In this document: piece after piece, positions 11,638 through 20,665 of the stretch
Position numbering within the stretch: the first letter of the stretch is position 1
Layout of the letters: every line of letters starts with the position of its first letter
From: a virus
Lineage: Duplodnaviria; Caudoviricetes
Virus record (IMG/VR): IMGVR_UViG_2595698882_000001
Coordinates: 1 to 64,000 of that record
Length of the DNA stretch: 64,000 nucleotides
Strand: one strand, 5' to 3'
The notes under the pieces: generated by a model
The model's database searches: none
What the model was told of the DNA's origin: nothing
The model's input: the letters and a program-made list of their open reading frames with translations, nothing else
Position numbers and translations under genes: made by a program

Positions 11638-11779
11638 CTTCTTCTAGTTTACTCTTGATGCGGGCTAAGTCCTCTCTTAACTTTTGAGCTTTAAATGCAT
11701 ACTTCTTAAGCTCCGCTTCATTTGCCTCCCGGGTTAAGTGCGGAGGGGTGGACCCGATGTAAACCCAGTCCTTAGCCAT
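11618..11779 (-). CDS. 53-aa hypothetical protein (not in ORF track)
   Basis: ATG overlaps the end of pghP; MAKDWVYIGSTPP... Confidence 0.55.
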   Translation of the reverse strand: MAKDWVYIGSTPPHLTREANEAELKKYAFKAQKLREDLARIKSKLEEEKKDSQ

Positions 11780-12398
11780 AATACTCTGCCTCTGCTTCTT
11801 TAATAGCCTCTGCGTAGTCTAAGAACTCCTGAGTGACATTCCCTCTGTTAGCTTTAGACCAGTCGTTATTCTGGAAGAAAGCCCTACGCTGTGCAGAGCT
11901 GATCTCTAACTGAACTCCTTTACCGGAAGCGCAGCGGTTTACAATGTTATCCGGGTTAGTAGCTGTAAAGCGGTCTGTAGCTACTTCAGCAGCAATCCCT
12001 TTAGAGTTGAGTTTGCTGACAATGAGGTTTCTAAGCTCTGTATTCAGTCCGCCCACCAGCGTGTTCTTGTTGTAGTCATCCTTGTACCCATGGAATGATA
12101 CGGCGTCTGTATGCTTAGAAAGCATATACACTGCCATAGGTTCATCGAAATGCGTACTTGTGACGTGTAATCGACTGTTTCCACTTGGCAGCAGCCCTTG
12201 GAACAAGTATAGGCTTCCCCCGGTCAATTCAACGACTCGGTAGATAAGCTCTGTAGTACCTACTTCAATTCCTCCAGCATGCGGTGAAAAATAGATCATA
12301 TTAGGATTTTGGCGCTTAACCTCGATATTGTACGCTACTCCGACAGTTTCTGCGTTCTCTAGTGCTTCAATATTTGGATATGTGTCTGTTTGTGCCAT
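11772..12398 (-). CDS. pghP: poly-gamma-glutamate hydrolase
   Basis: PHAGGIEVGT, HVTSTHFDEP, SFHG and QLEIS motifs; 208 aa from MAQTDTY, matching phiNIT1 PghP as recalled. Confidence 0.93.
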   Translation of the reverse strand: MAQTDTYPNIEALENAETVGVAYNIEVKRQNPNMIYFSPHAGGIEVGTTELIYRVVELTGGSLYLFQGLLPSGNSRLHVTSTHFDEPMAVYMLSKHTDAVSFHGYKDDYNKNTLVGGLNTELRNLIVSKLNSKGIAAEVATDRFTATNPDNIVNRCASGKGVQLEISSAQRRAFFQNNDWSKANRGNVTQEFLDYAEAIKEAEAEYYG

Positions 12399-12413
12399 GC
12401 TATCTGCCTCCAA

Positions 12414-14177
12414 TTAGTCTAATTTTGTGTTGTAGTTTTCAGTGTCTGCTTGACCAAGGTTGATCTTTCCGATGTAAGTGTTATACGCATACTTTGTATA
12501 TGTTGATCCTGTGGAGTCGTAAGAAGCATGCAGAGTGCAGCCGTCCATTGTACGGACATCATTGCTGATTAATCTAGCTTGTGTGGTGTTTACTAACTGA
12601 ACTCCGTATCCTCCGTTAGCTCCTCTTCTGAACATGATGTCATTACCTTTAAGCATGTGGTGTGCCCCGCCATTCAAGTAGATAGCGATTAGGTACTTGC
12701 AGTCTTCTAAGATGTTATAGGAGATAATAGTGGAGTAAGCGTCTGCGTAGCCGGAAATAGCAGCTGCTACAGCACCACTTATCCAGTTGGATTTAATCAA
12801 CTTAACTTGTGAAGTCTTGTCCCAGCTAATACCGTTACCATTACCAATAAGAGTTAAATCATTGTCTTTGATACGTACATTTGTTGACCGGGCAACCTGA
12901 ATACCGCCTTTGGCTACATGCTTGTTATCATTGACAACTACATCACTGGAGTCCTCTACTTTGATTCCGTAGTAATTTTCAGCGTCTTTACCTTTGTTGT
13001 TGCCCACCTGAACATCCACAGAGTTACGGACCCACACATGCAGGCAGTCACTGTTAATCGTATTATTAGCTACCATAACATCTTCGGAAAGGTAAGGGTT
13101 GATCCCCACGGAGCTAATATCCTCAAGATAGTTTTGGCTGACAATAACACCTACACCTCGGGCACAAATACCTGTAGCAAATCCTCTAATCTGGTTACCT
13201 GTGATGATTGTACGGTTACCAGTTTCGGAGGAGGACTTACGGATGGAGTCTATACCGTATGGTTTGTCTATCCCTGTCTCGTTAGTGATCGTGTTATTGC
13301 TGATCGTACTATCTGTCGAGAACCCGTAGCTGAACACGTCATCGGAGAAGTTATTAGTAGCATGAACTTTACCTGTAACGTTGATGTTTAAGGCACCTTT
13401 ACCATTTCTTTTGAAGCGGCAGTTCGTGATGTTGATTTCATAAGGATGGTCGTACTTAATGCTGTTTTCAGCGAATCCCTCCAAGTCGATACCGAATGCG
13501 GGTCCGATAGTGTCTCCGCCAGCTTCGATGAAATCACAGTCATCAACATTCATGCCAAGGCAGCCGTTCGTGGCTAGGTTATTACGTCTTCCTCGAATCA
13601 GTATGCATTTACGTATAGTGATCCCCTCAGATGGTATGTAGGTGCTGCCCTCCCAGTTCATCATACCTTTGGCAGGCACCCAGATGTTGTCACCTGTGCA
13701 GTTCATGACAGTTGCGTTCTCTACTGTGATGTTACGGCAGCCTCTGATATGGATTCCGTGACCCCACTCATGAGTTTTACGATTATCTGGTACTCCATCT
13801 GTAACGTAGTCATGCTCGTAGCGGTCCCCGATGATCGTTCCTCCTCGAAGAGTCACATTTTCCACATTTTCAAGATTGAAACAGGCGTACCCTGTTGAAC
13901 TATTTGGCGCTACCATAAACAGCGCTCTCTCATGAAAGATTACCTCGATGTTTGATGGGAACATTAAGCCACCACCGTACTCTGGAAGGCTACCTACAGT
14001 GCTTACAGCGTCAATAAGGTAAAGACCCTCTGGAACGTATACTGTGTGATATCCGAGCTCTACAGCCTCTTTAAGTGCAGCAATCCACCCGTCAGTGGTT
14101 GCTCTAGCCTCTGTCCCATCAGACCTGATTCCGAATTTCTCAAAGTCAACAAAGTACATATAGTTCGAGTTCGACAA
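12414..14177 (-). CDS. right-handed beta-helix (pectin-lyase-like) polysaccharide depolymerase
   Basis: FGIRSDG...VYVPEGLY N-terminus and many Asn/Gly parallel beta-helix repeats; TTG start after AAAGGAG. Confidence 0.8.
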   Translation of the reverse strand: MSNSNYMYFVDFEKFGIRSDGTEARATTDGWIAALKEAVELGYHTVYVPEGLYLIDAVSTVGSLPEYGGGLMFPSNIEVIFHERALFMVAPNSSTGYACFNLENVENVTLRGGTIIGDRYEHDYVTDGVPDNRKTHEWGHGIHIRGCRNITVENATVMNCTGDNIWVPAKGMMNWEGSTYIPSEGITIRKCILIRGRRNNLATNGCLGMNVDDCDFIEAGGDTIGPAFGIDLEGFAENSIKYDHPYEINITNCRFKRNGKGALNINVTGKVHATNNFSDDVFSYGFSTDSTISNNTITNETGIDKPYGIDSIRKSSSETGNRTIITGNQIRGFATGICARGVGVIVSQNYLEDISSVGINPYLSEDVMVANNTINSDCLHVWVRNSVDVQVGNNKGKDAENYYGIKVEDSSDVVVNDNKHVAKGGIQVARSTNVRIKDNDLTLIGNGNGISWDKTSQVKLIKSNWISGAVAAAISGYADAYSTIISYNILEDCKYLIAIYLNGGAHHMLKGNDIMFRRGANGGYGVQLVNTTQARLISNDVRTMDGCTLHASYDSTGSTYTKYAYNTYIGKINLGQADTENYNTKLD

Positions 14178-14234
14178 TAAAAGCACTCCTTTTGGTGTTT
14201 TTAGACACCTACAGGGAAAACCGATAAAACCCTC

Positions 14235-14405
14235 CTAGACTTTCTCTGTTGAGAATGCCACAGTAGTTGTCATGATGACGTTAAAGTTCTCGTTACAAGA
14301 ATCGCAGGGCATCACGAACTCAGCTTCCATGTCGGTAGGATCAACATATTCCCACCAGTCGTGGTAGTGGTAGTTACAGTGCGGACAGCAAAATCCCTCC
14401 TGCAT
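14235..14405 (-). CDS. 56-aa zinc-finger protein (not in ORF track)
   Basis: CPHC...CDSC; RBS GAGG; late-type TATATTA motif upstream. Confidence 0.7.
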   Translation of the reverse strand: MQEGFCCPHCNYHYHDWWEYVDPTDMEAEFVMPCDSCNENFNVIMTTTVAFSTEKV

Positions 14406-14445
14406 ACCTCATACCCCTCCCTTCCATAATATAGAAGATAATCCC

Positions 14446-15261
14446 TTAGTAAGCGAACCGGACAATCATATCCTTATTTGTCTTTCTGAACAGGTTCCAT
14501 TGAGCATGGCTTCCGCCGTAACCTTTGGTAATCCCATCTCCTAAGACCTCGTGGTTTTCATTCCACCCTTGCTTAACTGCATCGTACAGGTACTGAAGTA
14601 GGGTATCAACGTCCATATTTTTTAACTCCTTAGATGTGTTACCGGAGGGTGCCATTTCAGAAATCCAGTATTTAATCTCCTCAACATTACCATTACATCC
14701 CATGTCGAAGATAGCGTTCATCAATAGCTCCTTCAATTTACGTTCTCTTCGAGTAATTCCGATAAACACTTCTTCTGAAGGTGTTTCGAACTTTTCTAAG
14801 GCAGTCTTTTCCCTAGACTCCTTTTCCACGACATTGATGTCCCAGTCAAACTCAGTAAGCTCATCAGCGTATCTAGCTACCTTAGAGGCAACTTCGTAGT
14901 CAGTTTCAGGGTCTAGCCTACTCTTTCTAGTGATATATCCTTCGTCTTCAGCAACTACAATAAGGCTTCGGTTTTTATCAGTTAAAATTGCAGCAAAGTC
15001 GGGATCAAACCCTTCCTCCATATCATCGTCACTCACGACAGCATCCCCTGCGATAGCTTCCATTAGGTCATCAGGTAGAATAGGTAACGCATACTCTACA
15101 GAGTCCATTGCTGCCTTACTGACCAATACGACTGGAATTTCATCAAAATAGGATGACTCATCTTTGGGTGTCCATTCGAAACTTTTTGGAATCATATACG
15201 CTGGAGTATTTCCCGGGACCCAAACTGCAATAGCATTTTCTACAAAAAATCTTTTCGTCAT
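14446..15261 (-). CDS. YjbA/MdfA-like (DUF3603) protein, putative ClpC adaptor
   Basis: RKSRL, GITRRERKLKELL, EIKYWISE and LYDAVKQGWNENH blocks are colinear with B. subtilis YjbA as recalled. Confidence 0.8.
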   Translation of the reverse strand: MTKRFFVENAIAVWVPGNTPAYMIPKSFEWTPKDESSYFDEIPVVLVSKAAMDSVEYALPILPDDLMEAIAGDAVVSDDDMEEGFDPDFAAILTDKNRSLIVVAEDEGYITRKSRLDPETDYEVASKVARYADELTEFDWDINVVEKESREKTALEKFETPSEEVFIGITRRERKLKELLMNAIFDMGCNGNVEEIKYWISEMAPSGNTSKELKNMDVDTLLQYLYDAVKQGWNENHEVLGDGITKGYGGSHAQWNLFRKTNKDMIVRFAY

Positions 15262-15262
15262 G

Positions 15263-15769
15263 TTAATCTTCCCCCTCTAGTTTTAGCCTCTTTTTATAGA
15301 CACTGAAATTATACTTAATGCCTATATCCTCTGATCCGTCTTGATAGAAATATCGGTTCCAAATACTGCGGTCAAACTCCGGGAAAAATGCGTCAGCCTC
15401 TTCATACGTCTTTTCGACCTGTGTTAGGTATATTCGGTTTGCGTATGGGAAAAACTGGTTGTAGATGGTCTCTCCCCCGATGACCATAATCTCAAGTTCA
15501 TTCCTAAACTCGAAAAATATATCCTCTAGGTTGTGTCTAACAAGAACATCTGGGTGTGGGTCATACTCCCTGTTGTGTGTTAAAACAACATTAACTCTAC
15601 CCTTGAGTGGTTTTCCTATACTTTCGTATGTTTTCCTCCCCATGACCACCACCTTATTTTTAGTCTTTTGTCTAAACCAGTTCATATCCTCTTTGATGTC
15701 CCATAGTAATCTGTTGCCAGCTCCGATCTCTCGATTGAGACCCATGGCTGCGATTAGGGCTACATGCAT
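15263..15769 (-). CDS. dfrA: dihydrofolate reductase
   Basis: IAAM...IG...VVMGRKTYESIG.PL.GR.N.VL, IGGETIY, DAFFP. Confidence 0.95.
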   Translation of the reverse strand: MHVALIAAMGLNREIGAGNRLLWDIKEDMNWFRQKTKNKVVVMGRKTYESIGKPLKGRVNVVLTHNREYDPHPDVLVRHNLEDIFFEFRNELEIMVIGGETIYNQFFPYANRIYLTQVEKTYEEADAFFPEFDRSIWNRYFYQDGSEDIGIKYNFSVYKKRLKLEGED

Positions 15770-15801
15770 GTTGATCACTTCCTGCTGTATCATTTGATAA
15801 T

Positions 15802-15831
15802 AGTATATAACTGGGACTGTAACTATGTCAA
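15802..15831 (-). promoter_or_regulatory. sigmaA-type promoter with AGTTACAG spacer motif
   Basis: TTGACAtagttacag...TATACT. Confidence 0.75.
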
Positions 15832-15892
15832 TAACTTTTTAAAATATTATAAAAAAAAAGCCCCCTAATGGGGCTGTATTGTGTTATGGCAG

Positions 15893-16066
15893 TCACGGTA
15901 AGTGTAATACAAGTAAAGCGCAGCTTAAAATAAACAGAACAAACAACTGTTGCGATGACTGACGGTATATTAATTCTTGTACCGGGTCCTCTTCAATACG
16001 TGCCAAAAGACGATTAGCCAGCCACCCAGATAGGGAGTATATACAACCTATGGCTAGGAGTAACAT
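15893..16066 (-). CDS. 57-aa membrane protein (not in ORF track)
   Basis: GGAGGGG RBS; hydrophobic N- and C-terminal segments. Confidence 0.6.
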   Translation of the reverse strand: MLLLAIGCIYSLSGWLANRLLARIEEDPVQELIYRQSSQQLFVLFILSCALLVLHLP

Positions 16067-16069
16067 GGA

Positions 16070-16660
16070 CTACCCCTCCTTAGTCAGGGTAGCAACGATA
16101 GCATCTAGCTGCTCATATAGCTCTGCTAGTGAACCATTGTTGTTTACTACGAAGTCTACATCAAATTTGTTAACATGACTCTCTGGACCGAACTCTAAAT
16201 CCTCCTCAGTAAACTCATCTCCTGCCTCAATCATACGCTGCCTACGTACTTCTTTTGAAGACTCAATACGTATGGTGAAGAATCCATTCTCCTGACATGC
16301 GATAAACTCATCTTCTTGTCTAAGATCGTCAATGATCGGTCGGAAAACTCTCTCTTCTTCCGGGATAATTCCGTGCCAACTGTAGTTTTCTGCAACTTCT
16401 TCATACCGATTAATTAAGTCAAAGCATTTCTTGATCCAGACATCATTTCCTTCGACATATCTCTTTAACTCCCCATATAGCCTATACCCCTTTACAGGCT
16501 TAGGGTTGGTAAGGATATGAGGATATTCTTTATGGAAACCCTTCTTAAGCTCGGCACCAAAAGAGAAAGGCACCATTTTTAGCTTATCTATGAGATACTT
16601 AGCTGCCGTACTTTTACCTGTCCGTGTCTCCCCACAAATAGCAATTGGTGTAGCTCTCAT
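16070..16660 (-). CDS. deoxynucleoside monophosphate kinase
   Basis: P-loop GETRTGKS, IIDDLRQ.DE, NNGSLAEL. Confidence 0.85.
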   Translation of the reverse strand: MRATPIAICGETRTGKSTAAKYLIDKLKMVPFSFGAELKKGFHKEYPHILTNPKPVKGYRLYGELKRYVEGNDVWIKKCFDLINRYEEVAENYSWHGIIPEEERVFRPIIDDLRQEDEFIACQENGFFTIRIESSKEVRRQRMIEAGDEFTEEDLEFGPESHVNKFDVDFVVNNNGSLAELYEQLDAIVATLTKEG

Positions 16661-17592
16661 TTATTATCCTCCTCTTTCAGCCCGGTGCTTAATTTTCCCT
16701 TAATCGTAGGGTGTGCGTCATATCCAGTTAATATAATGTCGTCAAGGGTATAGTCTTCGATGTTCTCATGTACAGTCTTGACTTCTAGTTGTGGCATCTC
16801 TCTAGGTTCTCTCTCCATCTGACTCTTAAGTAGGTCTAGGTGGTTAACATAGATATGGGCGTCCCCTACCGAGTAGATGAGCTTCCCTACTTTCAATCCC
16901 GTCATCTTAGCAATGATGTGGGTTAGTAGTGCATAACTTGCTATGTTAAAAGGGGCACCTAAGAAAATATCATTTGATCTCATATATAACTTACAGCTCA
17001 AGGTACCGTTGACTACGTAGAACTGGAATAGGACATGACAAGGTGGTAGAGCCATGTACTCTAAGTCTCCTACGTTCCACGCAGATACAATGTGTCGGCG
17101 GCTGTCTGGGTTAGTTTTAATCTGTTTAATCACGTCCTGTAGCTGATCGTATTGCCGCTGGTATCCGAGGTCTCCCTCGATGTTAACTACACCACCCCAG
17201 CTGCGCCATTGACGACCGTAAATCGGTCCTAGTTTAAATCCTGTAAGCTTCGTCATTTCTACAAATCTTTCTTTAGTAAGAGGTTCTCCAGAATCCTCTT
17301 TATTATGGTTATCTAAATAGTATCTATAAGCATCGTCTGTCCAGATGTTGATGTTTTTGTCCAGCAGCGTCTTTAGGTCCGTATCTCCTTTGATGAACCA
17401 GAAAAGCTCCTCGGCAATGATCCTAAAAGGAAGTTTCTTCGTTGTCAGCAGAGGGAAACCTTTAGATAAGTCAAACTCCATTTGCGGACCAAACAAGCTT
17501 AGTGTACCAGTACCTGTACGATCATCCTTAAAGGTTCCTTCGTCCATAATTTTTTTAACTAAATTAAAATACTCTGTGTCTACGTGGTACAT
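16657..17592 (-). CDS. thyA: thymidylate synthase
   Basis: DRTGTGT, FPLLTTKK, MALPPCH, RSND.FLG.PFN. Confidence 0.97.
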   Translation of the reverse strand: MYHVDTEYFNLVKKIMDEGTFKDDRTGTGTLSLFGPQMEFDLSKGFPLLTTKKLPFRIIAEELFWFIKGDTDLKTLLDKNINIWTDDAYRYYLDNHNKEDSGEPLTKERFVEMTKLTGFKLGPIYGRQWRSWGGVVNIEGDLGYQRQYDQLQDVIKQIKTNPDSRRHIVSAWNVGDLEYMALPPCHVLFQFYVVNGTLSCKLYMRSNDIFLGAPFNIASYALLTHIIAKMTGLKVGKLIYSVGDAHIYVNHLDLLKSQMEREPREMPQLEVKTVHENIEDYTLDDIILTGYDAHPTIKGKLSTGLKEEDNK

Positions 17593-17593
17593 A

Positions 17594-18334
17594 TTAGTTC
17601 CCCCTCTTAAGTTCTCTTCTAATATTTTTCTCTACGTATACCCTAACAAGGTCTTGAACTTCTTGTGCTGTATCCGTGTCTACTTTCTGTTTTCGGTAGT
17701 CGTCCCCTAGCTCGTTGATATCTCCATCTAACCCATCCAGATGCTCTACATAGTCTCTTAGAGTTAAAAAATCAGCTTTACCCGATTTCAAACCTACTAA
17801 TGTCTCCTGAGCAATGGTTCCAGAATCGTACCACAGTGCCGCTTCGTAGTTGTTAAACCCTGATTTATGGAACTTAAGCAGAAGGTTAGCAATACGCATC
17901 GCTGAAGCGATATGCTTGCCAGTTTCTTTATAATCTAATTCCTTATTGAACAACGCTACCTCTGCTTTAGCATGCTGCTGTCGGAACATTCCTCGACACG
18001 CATTATAAAAATTCGGTAAATTTAGTGTAGTGATCTGGGATTTCATAGCTAGCAGCTGACCGTACAGACCGTCTTTCTGATATGTTCTTACGGAGAAAAG
18101 TGTTTCGATAAAATTCGGGCTGCCCTTACACAGGTAATCTGCCAGTTTTCTAACATCGTGAATCGCTACATCCTCCTGTTTAGAGGTGGATACCCCCTTA
18201 ATTTGAACACCGTTATACAGGTCATCAAAAGTAGGAAATACAAAGTGCAGCTGATCTACGTCTGAGTCCGGGGTAGCTAGATTGTAGTTATACGATCCAA
18301 CAACTGCCTTAAAGCTTAATTTACGGTCATCCAT
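17594..18334 (-). CDS. DNA polymerase beta-superfamily nucleotidyltransferase (RlaP-like)
   Basis: GSYNYNLATPDSDVD motif, K.SPNFIE.LF. Confidence 0.8.
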   Translation of the reverse strand: MDDRKLSFKAVVGSYNYNLATPDSDVDQLHFVFPTFDDLYNGVQIKGVSTSKQEDVAIHDVRKLADYLCKGSPNFIETLFSVRTYQKDGLYGQLLAMKSQITTLNLPNFYNACRGMFRQQHAKAEVALFNKELDYKETGKHIASAMRIANLLLKFHKSGFNNYEAALWYDSGTIAQETLVGLKSGKADFLTLRDYVEHLDGLDGDINELGDDYRKQKVDTDTAQEVQDLVRVYVEKNIRRELKRGN

Positions 18335-18397
18335 TTAGTTCCTCTCCTTTTTTTTTGCAAGTTTATGTTTAGTTTATCTATCTAGCGGGTAAGGTCC

Positions 18398-18604
18398 TTA
18401 TAAGTAACTTAGAAACAGCTGCACACTTAGCATACCATCATAAACAGCTACTCCAGCGTAGACCAAGAACATCAGCCCTAAGTAAATGTCTATACTGTAT
18501 CTAAACAAGTAGTAATCGTAGAAGCATTTCATACCTCCACAGATACAAAAAGCTACCCATAAAAGATGTATAATCCATAGTATAGTGAAGCCTATATAAA
18601 GCAT
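18398..18604 (-). CDS. small membrane protein
   Basis: AAGGAGG RBS; two TM segments; promoter TTGACA-17-TATACT upstream. Confidence 0.75.
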   Translation of the reverse strand: MLYIGFTILWIIHLLWVAFCICGGMKCFYDYYLFRYSIDIYLGLMFLVYAGVAVYDGMLSVQLFLSYL

Positions 18605-18693
18605 TCAAACCTCCTTACCACCAGCCTGTAACATCAGTATATGCTGGCTATAACATATTGTCAATATATTTGTCGATAATTTTTAAGCATATT

Positions 18694-19269
18694 TTAAAAT
18701 ACCAGAGGATATTTGTCTCTATTCCGGTATAATTTTTCATAACAAGCCTCTATAACTCGTGCATCGTATAGGGCGTTATGGCGATCTCCACTAATTGGAG
18801 TGTCAATAAAGGACTCCCGGTTAATGTCTGGGTCTATACCATGGATTTTAAACAAAGTGGCGATATCCCCATAGTACATGCAAACGTTATCAGGTAAGTT
18901 TAAAGCTCCACCAAGCAAGTCATTTAAAAGGATCGCATCGTAATACAGCGTGTCTCCCCAAAATTCTACCTTGTCAAACTGAGCAACCCAGCCACGAACA
19001 ACTCTGGATAGGAATGAGGATGACCCTCTAGCAACTGTGGCATCTCCTACTTCATGGCTGAATGTCTCTCCAAGATGGGGAGCAAGCGTAAAGTGTAGGA
19101 CAAGATGCTGTATTACATTCTGTTTGATCCAGTCGTCTACTTGAGATTGGTCGTAGTCTGTAAACTCACAGTACAATGTCTTCCCATCATCAGCCGCCAT
19201 ACCTAAACTAATAGGTGTGGTCCCTCTATTTAACCCCGTGAACTCAAGATCGAAGAAAACTTTTGTCAT
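18694..19269 (-). CDS. DEDDh 3'-5' exo(ribo)nuclease (Rv2179c-like)
   Basis: FFDLEFTGL...ISLG...YYD...HNALYDA. Confidence 0.85.
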   Translation of the reverse strand: MTKVFFDLEFTGLNRGTTPISLGMAADDGKTLYCEFTDYDQSQVDDWIKQNVIQHLVLHFTLAPHLGETFSHEVGDATVARGSSSFLSRVVRGWVAQFDKVEFWGDTLYYDAILLNDLLGGALNLPDNVCMYYGDIATLFKIHGIDPDINRESFIDTPISGDRHNALYDARVIEACYEKLYRNRDKYPLVF

Positions 19270-19340
19270 CTATAACTCCTCCTGTATTTTTAATGTATTA
19301 TACACAAAAGAAGCAGCCAATGAGCTTGACTGCTTAACTT

Positions 19341-19946
19341 TTAGTTCTTCTTGTTAGACATAATGCGACTCCACTCACGAGCTACCTCAGCATCTGACAT
19401 CTCTTCGATGTCAAACTTACTGTTGGAAGGTAAGTGCTCAAGATAGAACCGAATCAAGTCTAAGTCACTAAGGGAATAGTCCTGCTTAGCCCCTAAGTCA
19501 TTCTCAATCGCAATAAGCAGATCATTGATCTCATATGTAAACAGCTCATCTACGCTTCTAACCCGCATGAGTAGGTCTTCTCCTGTAGGCGCCTCCTGCT
19601 CTTCCTTTAGCTTTAATGCAGCTGTGACCATACGATTGAGGTTCTCTGGACTATCGTTACCGTAAATCATTTCTAATCGGGCTCCTACATAGTCAGTGAT
19701 CGGCTCCCCTTCAAATAGCCCGTCTACTGAAGGTAGTGTTGTTGTTTCTAAATCTAGATTAGGGTCCTTCTCTTCTACAGCAGCTAGAAGTTCATCTGCG
19801 CTCTGTTTCATTTTTTGAACTTTCTTAATAAACTCATCGTCCGTAACTGTGAGCTGAAAAGACTCTGTATTAAGGCAATCTGATACCTCCTCTGCGGCAA
19901 CCTGTGCCCAGAAGAATAGCTCTAGTGTTTTTCGATCTAATTTCAT
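19341..19946 (-). CDS. hypothetical protein
   Basis: AGGAGG RBS, 201 aa. Confidence 0.8.
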   Translation of the reverse strand: MKLDRKTLELFFWAQVAAEEVSDCLNTESFQLTVTDDEFIKKVQKMKQSADELLAAVEEKDPNLDLETTTLPSVDGLFEGEPITDYVGARLEMIYGNDSPENLNRMVTAALKLKEEQEAPTGEDLLMRVRSVDELFTYEINDLLIAIENDLGAKQDYSLSDLDLIRFYLEHLPSNSKFDIEEMSDAEVAREWSRIMSNKKN

Positions 19947-19966
19947 ATGTTTTCCTCCTAATTTGT

Positions 19967-20665
19967 CTAGTACATCCCGATCTCGTCACTGAATGAGCTA
20001 AATTTACCTCGGTAGTTTGTTGTCAATTCAGCGAACTCGATCTCTGTAAAAATTCCGGTCTCTTTTCCTCGCTTAAAGTGATGAATAAAAGCAGAGAATC
20101 CAGAGTTCCCTTTAGAAATATCTATCTGACCGTTGTGACCTGCTAAACCTACGTAGCAGCTGTCTTTAATCCGGGTCAATGTCTTTCTGATCTCGTCTAC
20201 GGTACCATTCTGTGCTTCGTCAATAATAATCCCAACCCGGTCCATCGTTCTTCCACGTAAGAACGTATGTGGCATAACTTTGTAGTCACCGCCGATAAAC
20301 TCATCACACATCATCTCTAAATCAATGGTCTGCGGGTTCTCCCCCGCTTCTACTAGCGCCTGTCGAAAAGGGACAGCATACTCTTTGATCTTTTCAGAAA
20401 CACCGCCCGGCAAAAACCCTAAAGATTTTTCCTGTACCGGGAATACCACATAATAAATCGCATCTATATACCCTTTATCCTTGAGGACTTTCATAGCCTG
20501 TGTGAGTACAGTTGTTTTACCTGATCCCGCTACAGAGTCAACAATAACCCTTTGGGACTTGAAAAGCTTGATCACCATATCTTCCTGTTCACGGTCCAAA
20601 TTCTTAATCAATGGAAAATCTTTTTTGGTCAGCTTACTGAGGTCTAACGATTCTTTATGTGTCAT
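19967..20665 (-). CDS. phoH: PhoH-family ATPase
   Basis: AGSGKT, LGFLPG, FLRGRT, IIDEAQN, QID motifs. Confidence 0.93.
   Translation of the reverse strand: MTHKESLDLSKLTKKDFPLIKNLDREQEDMVIKLFKSQRVIVDSVAGSGKTTVLTQAMKVLKDKGYIDAIYYVVFPVQEKSLGFLPGGVSEKIKEYAVPFRQALVEAGENPQTIDLEMMCDEFIGGDYKVMPHTFLRGRTMDRVGIIIDEAQNGTVDEIRKTLTRIKDSCYVGLAGHNGQIDISKGNSGFSAFIHHFKRGKETGIFTEIEFAELTTNYRGKFSSFSDEIGMY

Follow-up and report, generated by a model that had tools for sequence, protein, structure and literature searches.

A predicted MdfA-family ClpC adaptor encoded next to dihydrofolate reductase in Bacillus phages

Introduction

MdfA (YjbA, DUF3603) was characterized only in 2025, as a forespore-specific adaptor of ClpC (Massoni et al., 2025; Riley et al., 2025). 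In Bacillus subtilis, mdfA is sigmaF-dependent and forespore-specific, and its product stimulates the oligomerization and the ATPase activity of ClpC. MdfA is not degraded by ClpCP in vitro and does not boost casein degradation; when made in vegetative cells it abolishes Z-ring formation and causes filamentation and lysis, for which both clpC and clpP are required (Massoni et al., 2025). Binding of MdfA at its site on the ClpC N-domain is incompatible with the resting state of ClpC. Here we describe a gene for a predicted MdfA-like protein at positions 14446..15261, on the minus strand, of IMG/VR virus record IMGVR_UViG_2595698882_000001 (Caudoviricetes). The DNA analyzed, called the window below, comprises the first 64 kb of this complete, 156,648-bp virus record, which has direct terminal repeats.

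The available text of Massoni et al. (2025) reports MdfA as absent outside endospore-forming Bacillaceae. Riley et al. (2025) place it in aerobic, spore-forming Bacilli and, in the portion available, have the words 'a few in viruses' only in the legend of a Pfam sunburst, for its gray sector; the supplementary text contains no mention of 'phage', 'virus' or 'viral'. Published work on the function of phage MdfA homologues was not found among the matches listed, a scope that does not extend to the supplements of Massoni et al. (2025). A few GenBank annotations already note the family membership ('DUF3603 family protein' in the SPG24 RefSeq entry, 'DUF3603 domain' for Shbh1 gp85 and 'UPF0736' for Mater gp216). 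New in the present work are the functional reading, the finding that the ClpC contacts are conserved, the deep clade of phage proteins and the coupling to dihydrofolate reductase (DHFR).

As a general idea, a ClpC adaptor made by a phage has a precedent. Gp53 of SPO1, a Bacillus phage of the Herelleviridae, is an adaptor-like phage product of 221 amino acids, similar in size to the MdfA-like protein. Gp53 binds ClpC, stimulates its ATPase activity and supports efficient phage development without bringing about casein degradation; it competes with MecA, slows MecA- and McsB-dependent degradation and is itself degraded (Mulvenna et al., 2019; PMC6873191, in the portion available). Gp53 and MdfA are thus alike in stimulating the ClpC ATPase and in not promoting casein degradation, but MdfA uses a different surface of the N-domain and is not degraded, whereas Gp53 is degraded and is a competitor of MecA. 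The canonical ClpC adaptors, MecA and McsB/McsA, also act on the N-domain of ClpC and turn on ClpCP; their sequences are unrelated to that of the phage protein, and their N-domain binding surfaces differ from that of MdfA. Cyclomarin A, ecumicin and rufomycin deregulate the protease of Mycobacterium tuberculosis by way of a ClpC1 surface homologous to the MdfA site. These are small cyclic peptides and not proteins; their link to the phage protein is inferred, and by analogy they could be a model for toxicity of the phage protein at the MdfA site.

Results

Family membership and ClpC contacts

The gene was brought to attention by a sequence-only reading of the window, which took it for a phage homologue of YjbA/MdfA and placed it exactly.

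14446..15261, minus strand: MdfA-like (DUF3603) gene, 271 amino acids; intact open reading frame (ORF) with an ATG start; Pfam, PHROG and 8b3s_A sequence and fold matches

The gene product matched Pfam family PF12227/DUF3603 with an E-value of 1.2e-26 and 93.8 bits over profile positions 2-206 of 214, compared with a gathering cut-off of 23.7 bits; this HMMER comparison had been proposed with the sequence-only reading. The match was repeated at the genome level (93.9 bits). The protein also matched PHROG 7257 ('unknown function') with an E-value of 2.6e-100, and a phmmer search of PDB sequences returned 8b3s_A ('UPF0736 protein YjbA', that is, MdfA) with an E-value of 1.2e-20, the runner-up having an E-value of 0.45. 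PDB 8B3S is the cocrystal of MdfA with the ClpC N-domain (Massoni et al., 2025). The resemblance to YjbA, as measured by these sequence comparisons, is far beyond chance. All of the colinear blocks by which the homology had been recognized were found in the translation: FEWTPKDESSYFDEIP at residues 28-43, TD at 94-95 followed by RKSRLDP at 112-118, PS....GITRRERKLKELL..A at 161-185, EIKYWISEMAP at 195-205 and LYDAVKQGWNENHEVLG at 225-241. The protein matched no NCBIfam family, and PADLOC models gave zero matches for it or for the zinc-ribbon-like protein encoded downstream. At E <= 1, the only Pfam matches were DUF3603 and, below threshold, DUF7250; a MecA domain was not among them. The Pfam and PDB sequence matches, together with the predicted fold, contact residues and synteny described below, uphold the proposed homology; on sequence and model, the gene is assigned to a phage-borne member of the MdfA family of ClpC adaptors.

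Three charged pairs, MdfA E161/ClpC K12, E116/K85 and E53/H79, have been validated by charge reversals and swaps and mediate the binding, the sporulation function and the vegetative toxicity of MdfA (Massoni et al., 2025). The phage equivalents of E53, E116 and E161 were located by HMMER alignment to the crystal chain and by aligning 122 sequences with MAFFT. Numbering in the crystal chain differs from the native one by 21 residues; this offset was verified on a B. subtilis-group chromosomal copy, which has E at 53, 116 and 161.

15094..15096, minus strand: codon of E56, equivalent to MdfA E53 (ClpC H79 contact), from the HMMER and MAFFT alignments
14899..14901, minus strand: codon of D121, equivalent to MdfA E116 (ClpC K85 contact), from the HMMER and MAFFT alignments
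14743..14745, minus strand: codon of E173, equivalent to MdfA E161 (ClpC K12 contact), from the alignments, with the codon read directly from the sequence

The E161 position was E in all 14 known phage copies and was invariant in both the 65-sequence and the 122-sequence alignments (65/65 and 122/122). The E53 position was E in 11 of the 14 known phage copies and in 36/36 known bacterial copies; the E116 position was E or D in 12/14 phage copies (D in five) and E in all 36 bacterial copies. All three positions were acidic in 9 of the 14 phage copies, and the three residues were identical in five Nitunavirus orthologues. E173 closes the segment G168 I169 T170 R171 R172 E173, which belongs to the family's strongest motif (G-L/I-T-R-x-E-R-x-x-K) and whose G and E were invariant in 65/65 and 122/122 sequences. 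The conserved core common to phage and bacterial proteins consists of EW..D, KS, G-L-T-R-x-E-R..K, YW and GW..H, and the other positions conserved in the phage clade are the same ones that are conserved in bacteria.

The phage protein therefore shares with B. subtilis MdfA its Pfam family, the G-L-T-R-x-E motif and acidic residues at the three contact positions. Unlike MdfA, it carries D instead of E at position 116, its linker is longer and an acidic insert is present at about residues 76-88; outside the conserved core, its surface is strongly diverged from that of bacterial MdfA, with 22-30% identity. SPO1 Gp53 was considered as a cryptic relative of MdfA and rejected: it matched no Pfam family above cut-off, and hhalign gave 0.7% probability against the DUF3603 alignment. 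Neither DUF3603 in SPO1 nor Gp53 in the genome of the window (E <= 0.1) gave a match, in searches made without a positive control in the target record.

Two-domain model

An AlphaFold2 model built from the 65-sequence alignment had a mean predicted local distance difference test score (pLDDT) of 91.4 and a predicted template modeling score (pTM) of 0.86, and its sole weak internal stretch, about residues 141-150, lies in the inter-domain linker. A Foldseek search of the PDB returned 8b3s_A with an E-value of 1.3e-15, template modeling (TM) scores of 0.73/0.81 and 22% identity; the next match had an E-value of 0.08. VIA aligned model residues 2-259 to all 240 of the 240 target residues of 8b3s_A (Z 22.9, root-mean-square deviation 3.1 A). 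Its second-best match was the APAF-1 CARD, on the C-domain (Z 3.9), in line with the death-domain-like fold of MdfA-C described by Massoni et al. (2025).

14857..15261, minus strand: N-terminal domain (about residues 1-135), carrying E56 and D121; aligns to MdfA-N in the AlphaFold model
14482..14808, minus strand: C-terminal helical-bundle domain (about residues 152-260), carrying the G-I-T-R-R-E motif; helices from 154 to 260 in the AlphaFold model

The modeled N-domain has strands at residues 5-13, 36-47 and 89-116 and helices at 49-57, 64-70 and 118-134; MdfA-N is residues 1-135 as defined by Massoni et al. (2025). The two-domain architecture of MdfA, with an N-domain made of a beta-barrel, a hairpin and helices, a flexible linker and a C-terminal helical bundle, was found in the model, and the fold is predicted to be common to both proteins over their full length.

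Homologues in other phages

By tblastn, full-length homologues were detected in 86 phage records, comprising 85 named Bacillus phages and 'Phage f2b1', and 62 of the 86 were less than 60% identical to the query; the phages concerned are read as large Bacillus myoviruses. Among the matches listed, genomes were 138-165 kb, except for a 6.2-kb partial record of phiNIT1. Every homologue record whose taxonomy was fetched belonged to the Herelleviridae, mostly to the Bastillevirinae. Because tblastn loses sensitivity near 20% identity (the Tsarbombavirus matches already had E-values of about 1e-3), homologues in non-Bacillus Herelleviridae count as not found rather than as absent.

The surroundings of the gene were compared in 12 diverse loci from Jeonjuvirus, Grisebachstrassevirus, Goettingenvirus, Shalavirus, Agatevirus, Matervirus, Tsarbombavirus and unclassified phages. 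A DHFR gene was directly upstream in 11 of the 12, the exception being Shbh1, and in 3/3 further annotated Nitunavirus loci. All 12 DHFR-bearing loci, with the window included, had a Shine-Dalgarno sequence in the 3' end of the DHFR gene and an abutting or overlapping start codon. Seven of these 12 had a TTGACA/TTGACT-17/18-TATACT-type site 5' of DHFR; in the remaining five, DHFR continues an upstream operon. The MdfA-like gene is not peculiar to this phage, being conserved in the DHFR module of Bacillus Bastillevirinae. DHFR and type-1 thymidylate synthase have been named signature genes of this phage group, and the neighbor of DHFR is not mentioned in the available portion of that report (Asare et al., 2015).

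The two genes also occur fused. A 288-amino acid metagenomic protein, P0036, combines a complete DHFR domain (DHFR_1, residues 3-157) with the C-terminal half of DUF3603 (profile positions 110-197, residues 177-266) and lacks the N-domain. The 90% cluster of this protein holds four distinct members from several contigs and two sources. A search for its genomic context gave no relatives in viral contigs, and 26/26 metagenome loci matched the DHFR part only. P0036 may be a deletion that fused two adjacent phage genes, or it may hint at a functional link with DHFR. A weak match to P0089 (1364 amino acids, with F5/8 type C domains) was probably spurious and was excluded from all alignments.

The gene that follows differs among the phages. 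A zinc-ribbon-like protein (PHROG 6504) is encoded next in the window and in SPG24, 043JT007, 035JT004, Goe3 and BSP38; a different protein of about 90-105 amino acids, whose start overlaps or closely abuts, follows in BSP38, Mater, f2b1, Goe8, P59 and Shbh1. Either could be a partner of the MdfA-like protein. The host given in the record of Phage f2b1 (MN940411) is Staphylococcus aureus. Its DUF3603 protein and neighboring proteins group with those of the B. megaterium phages Goe8 and Mater, the record's own notes cite genes of Goe8, Mater and Moonbeam, and the host label looks doubtful.

Bacterial relatives, trees and selection

The DUF3603 family is small: a search of 1.84 billion proteins (E <= 1e-3) yielded 89 representatives at 50% identity. 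PF12227 exceeded its cut-off in 29 of the 301 genomes sampled from the class Bacilli, with one copy each; these chromosomal copies scored 245-378 bits, compared with 94 bits for the phage protein. A pattern built from an 8-sequence alignment and run on species genomes detected at least 533 chromosomal relatives, of which the best 80 were nearly all from halophilic Bacillaceae genera. A contig titled 'Roseburia sp. 1XD42-34' (NZ_QWLJ01000036.1) encodes an MdfA that is 58% identical to the Halobacillus query and resembles the Virgibacillus/Oceanobacillus copies; since MdfA is reported absent from Clostridia, this assembly is probably mislabeled or contaminated.

A quick IQ-TREE analysis of 122 sequences separated 14 named phage proteins and 33 unlabeled representatives from 36 chromosomal proteins and 39 representatives with 99% SH-aLRT support. 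An LG+C20 PMSF tree of 54 sequences, made from all 14 phage proteins, 18 of the 36 chromosomal proteins and 22 of the 72 representatives with shorter branches preferred, recovered the split again with 100/99 support (14 phage proteins and 10 representatives vs. 18 bacterial proteins and 12 representatives). The phage protein and all known bacterial MdfA are on opposite sides of this branch, and the phage homologues, as far as aligned sequences can tell, form a deep clade apart from bacterial MdfA. The phage side of the tree was much more divergent than the bacterial side. In the mixture-model tree the bacterial clade adjoins the P59/Mater/Goe8 phage group, with weak support; because the tree is unrooted, transfer may have gone either way.

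The ratio of nonsynonymous to synonymous substitution rates (dN/dS, NG86) was 0.10-0.25 in nine of the ten pairs among five Nitunavirus orthologues, showing that the gene is under purifying selection. The tenth pair, the window and SPG24, gave 0.63 at a dS of 0.076; this value stems from 29 replacements, which are scattered and in many cases seen in SPG24 alone. They may reflect adaptive change in one lineage, relaxed selection or errors in a draft sequence.

Operon and promoter-like site

The 4.1-kb gene region shared 97% identity with Bacillus phage SBSphiJ7 and about 89-90% with phiNIT1, SPG24 and BSP10; by this sequence similarity, the window is assigned to a phiNIT1/SBSphiJ-type Bacillus myovirus (Nitunavirus, Bastillevirinae, Herelleviridae). 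The genes around the MdfA-like gene are listed in their order of reading.

16657-17592, minus strand: thymidylate synthase, first in gene order
16070-16660, minus strand: deoxynucleoside monophosphate (dNMP) kinase, after thymidylate synthase
15893-16066, minus strand: 57-codon hydrophobic ORF (MLLLAIGCIYSLSGWLANRLL...), between the dNMP kinase gene and the terminator
15859..15875, minus strand: intrinsic-terminator-like hairpin and T-run, closing the upstream thyA/dNMP kinase unit
15802..15831, minus strand: sigmaA-type promoter-like site, TTGACA-18-TATACT, 11/12 consensus positions, directly after the terminator-like hairpin
15263..15793, minus strand: DHFR (Pfam DHFR_1, E 1.4e-48), upstream gene, translationally coupled
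14235..14405, minus strand: 56-amino acid zinc-ribbon-like protein, directly downstream of the MdfA-like gene (PHROG 6504, E 4.3e-26; CxxC...CxxC)
within 11772-14186, minus strand: tail-spike ORF, 590 amino acids, beta-helix (Pfam Beta_helix and NosD; PHROG 2234)

The DHFR gene ends at 15263 and the MdfA-like ATG is at 15259-15261, with a 1-nt gap and with GAGGGGG a few bases 5' of the ATG. The sequence-only reading was right in coupling the gene to DHFR and in placing it downstream of a sigmaA-type promoter-like site. This site was called because it is a good match, is well placed and recurs in relatives, not because of enrichment. A regular-expression scan of the 339 nt upstream detected no sigmaF/sigmaG-like motif. 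No terminator-like site was found between 14446 and 12414.

The 57-codon ORF may encode a small membrane peptide. In the SPG24 and 035JT004 annotations the zinc-ribbon-like protein bears the label 'zinc ribbon domain protein', and its matches to TRASH/zinc-finger Pfam families were weak and below cut-off. A poly-gamma-glutamate hydrolase gene follows the tail-spike gene in relatives; a 213-amino acid ORF at 11772-12413 holds the syntenic place here. Two RNA-Seq runs of one food-metatranscriptome study contain a related phage. Its RNA-library contigs are without 20 bases at 14393-14412, near the zinc-ribbon ATG (14403-14405) and 3' of the MdfA-like stop; this gap is a strain difference and not evidence of processing.

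Two further genes in the record, both outside the window, resemble sporulation genes. A sigma factor of 337 amino acids at about 119.7-120.8 kb had SigF/SigG as its best NCBIfam match (197 bits vs. a cut-off of 311 bits) and resembles the divergent, sporulation-like sigma factors of Goe3 and SP10. An FtsK/SpoIIIE-domain protein at about 131.8-132.4 kb lies in a 748-amino acid frame (PF01580, 159.5 bits); a SpoIIIE-like homologue is common in Bastille-like phages (Asare et al., 2015).

Discussion

We propose, with modest confidence and on the basis of sequence and model, that the phage protein is made early, binds and activates ClpC of the host by way of the N-domain and so redirects or deregulates ClpCP. 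Host RNA polymerase would transcribe the gene early, together with the phage nucleotide-synthesis genes. Because the gene has a sigmaA-type site and belongs to a nucleotide-metabolism operon, the protein would be made in vegetative cells, which lack host MdfA. It would then dock on the hydrophobic groove of the ClpC N-domain, break the ClpC resting state and activate the ClpC ATPase and ClpCP, by which host proteolysis would be redirected or deregulated. Since MdfA made in vegetative cells leads to filamentation and lysis through ClpCP, metabolic enzymes, transcription factors and the cell-division machinery are, by analogy, candidate targets. The end result would be similar to that of SPO1 Gp53, an unrelated protein. 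Each step from keeping the contacts to binding, from binding to activating and from activating to benefiting the phage is inferred. The sequence-only reading had put forward a redirection of ClpCP or, as another option, a dominant-negative effect on sporulation, and on the sequence and model data either may hold.

Several points weigh against this proposal. The phage protein is just 22-23% identical to MdfA in the Foldseek and VIA alignments. Position 116 is D instead of E, a conservative change, and 5 of the 14 phage copies miss one acidic contact (Q in Yucatan and 000TH009, P in Bp8p-C, A in Goe3 and F in Mater). The MdfA-ClpC interface covers 1360 A2 and has a hydrophobic part besides the charged pairs, and the comparison of contacts concerns the three charged residues. 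AlphaFold-Multimer failed even on the genuine MdfA-ClpC pair (Massoni et al., 2025). Early transcription is suggested by a consensus match, and promoter-like sites were no more common in 12000-20000 than in shuffled sequence (16 vs. a shuffle mean of 17.5). The RNA-library contigs of the related phage cover 11500-19500 at roughly flat depth, with the tail spike among the genes covered; since starts, strand and level are not visible in contigs, they give no timing. The strict linkage to DHFR and the fusion of DHFR to the DUF3603 C-domain leave room for a DHFR-related role.

The same binding determinants would serve equally a protein that blocks ClpC. Such a blocker or decoy would bind the MdfA site and compete with MecA, McsB or host MdfA, or simply occupy ClpC, so that phage proteins are shielded from ClpCP or the competence, stress response and sporulation programs are turned off. 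MdfA in vitro is neither degraded by ClpCP nor a stimulator of casein degradation, Gp53 slows MecA- and McsB-dependent degradation by competition (PMC6873191), and the surface of the phage protein beyond the conserved core is far from that of bacterial MdfA (22-30% identity), all of which suit a blocker. However, MdfA binding at this site is itself activating, as it is incompatible with the resting state and raises ATPase activity, and a binder with the same contacts is therefore expected to activate ClpC rather than to silence it. We regard a blocker, which corresponds to the dominant-negative option of the sequence-only reading, as unlikely.

The constancy of DHFR directly upstream (11/12 diverse and 3/3 further annotated loci, where the stop codon overlaps or abuts the start codon), together with the four-sequence cluster that joins DHFR to the DUF3603 C-domain, speaks for a role independent of ClpC, in which the MdfA fold would serve as a partner, scaffold or regulator of DHFR or of a dNTP-synthesis complex. 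The fusion is weak evidence for such a role since adjacent genes can fuse by simple deletion. Shbh1 retains the MdfA-like gene with no annotated DHFR adjoining it, and conservation within the phage clade is highest exactly at the validated ClpC contacts and in the surrounding motif. A ClpC-independent role in the thymidylate/folate module is, in our view, improbable.

More improbable still is a sporulation-directed accessory gene that blocks or exploits spore formation. The genome does encode a SigF/SigG-family sigma factor and an FtsK/SpoIIIE homologue with which such a gene could act, and Goe3 and Eldridge have a sporulation-like sigma factor (Schwartz et al., 2022) as well as a DUF3603 gene. 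Vegetative MdfA stops Z-ring formation, so the polar septum would be blocked too. The gene is, however, in a nucleotide-metabolism operon behind a sigmaA-type site, and the scan of its 339-nt upstream region revealed no sigmaF/sigmaG-like motif. A non-functional remnant was rejected, as the ORF is intact in 86/86 phage records and nine of ten pairs show low dN/dS.

In its setting the phage gene differs from its bacterial counterpart: it belongs to a DHFR operon with a sigmaA-type site in a lytic phage, whereas the MdfA gene is a sigmaF-dependent, chromosomal forespore gene of Bacillaceae. Extending the proposal that the phage protein binds and activates ClpC, we tentatively suggest, while thinking it on balance doubtful, that Bacillus Bastillevirinae have since their early radiation carried a working ClpC adaptor of the MdfA type whose substrate range is specific to the phages, and which is made early with the thymidylate/folate genes and imposes a forespore-like program on the vegetative cell. 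Such a program would consist of the ClpCP-driven loss of host metabolic enzymes and regulators and a block of cell division, and the MdfA-like gene would then belong, like those for the SigF/SigG-like sigma factor and the SpoIIIE-like translocase, to a set of forespore-derived phage genes. It would follow, more boldly, that a single exchange may have taken place between bacterial MdfA and the phage clade and that the sporulation adaptor may be of phage origin, which is thinkable because the phage copies are far more diverse and the bacterial clade lies beside the P59/Mater/Goe8 group, with weak support.

If the contacts are kept and the operon is early, these phages would constitute a natural experiment on MdfA-activated ClpCP in vegetative cells, and their diverged natural variants would offer a panel for mapping the substrate-recognition surface of MdfA. 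Together with Gp53, the MdfA-like protein would be a second instance, independent of the first, in which phages target the N-domain of ClpC, which is a site of antibiotic interest. If the phage protein binds ClpC, two Bacillus subfamilies of Herelleviridae would reach one host machine by way of unrelated proteins.

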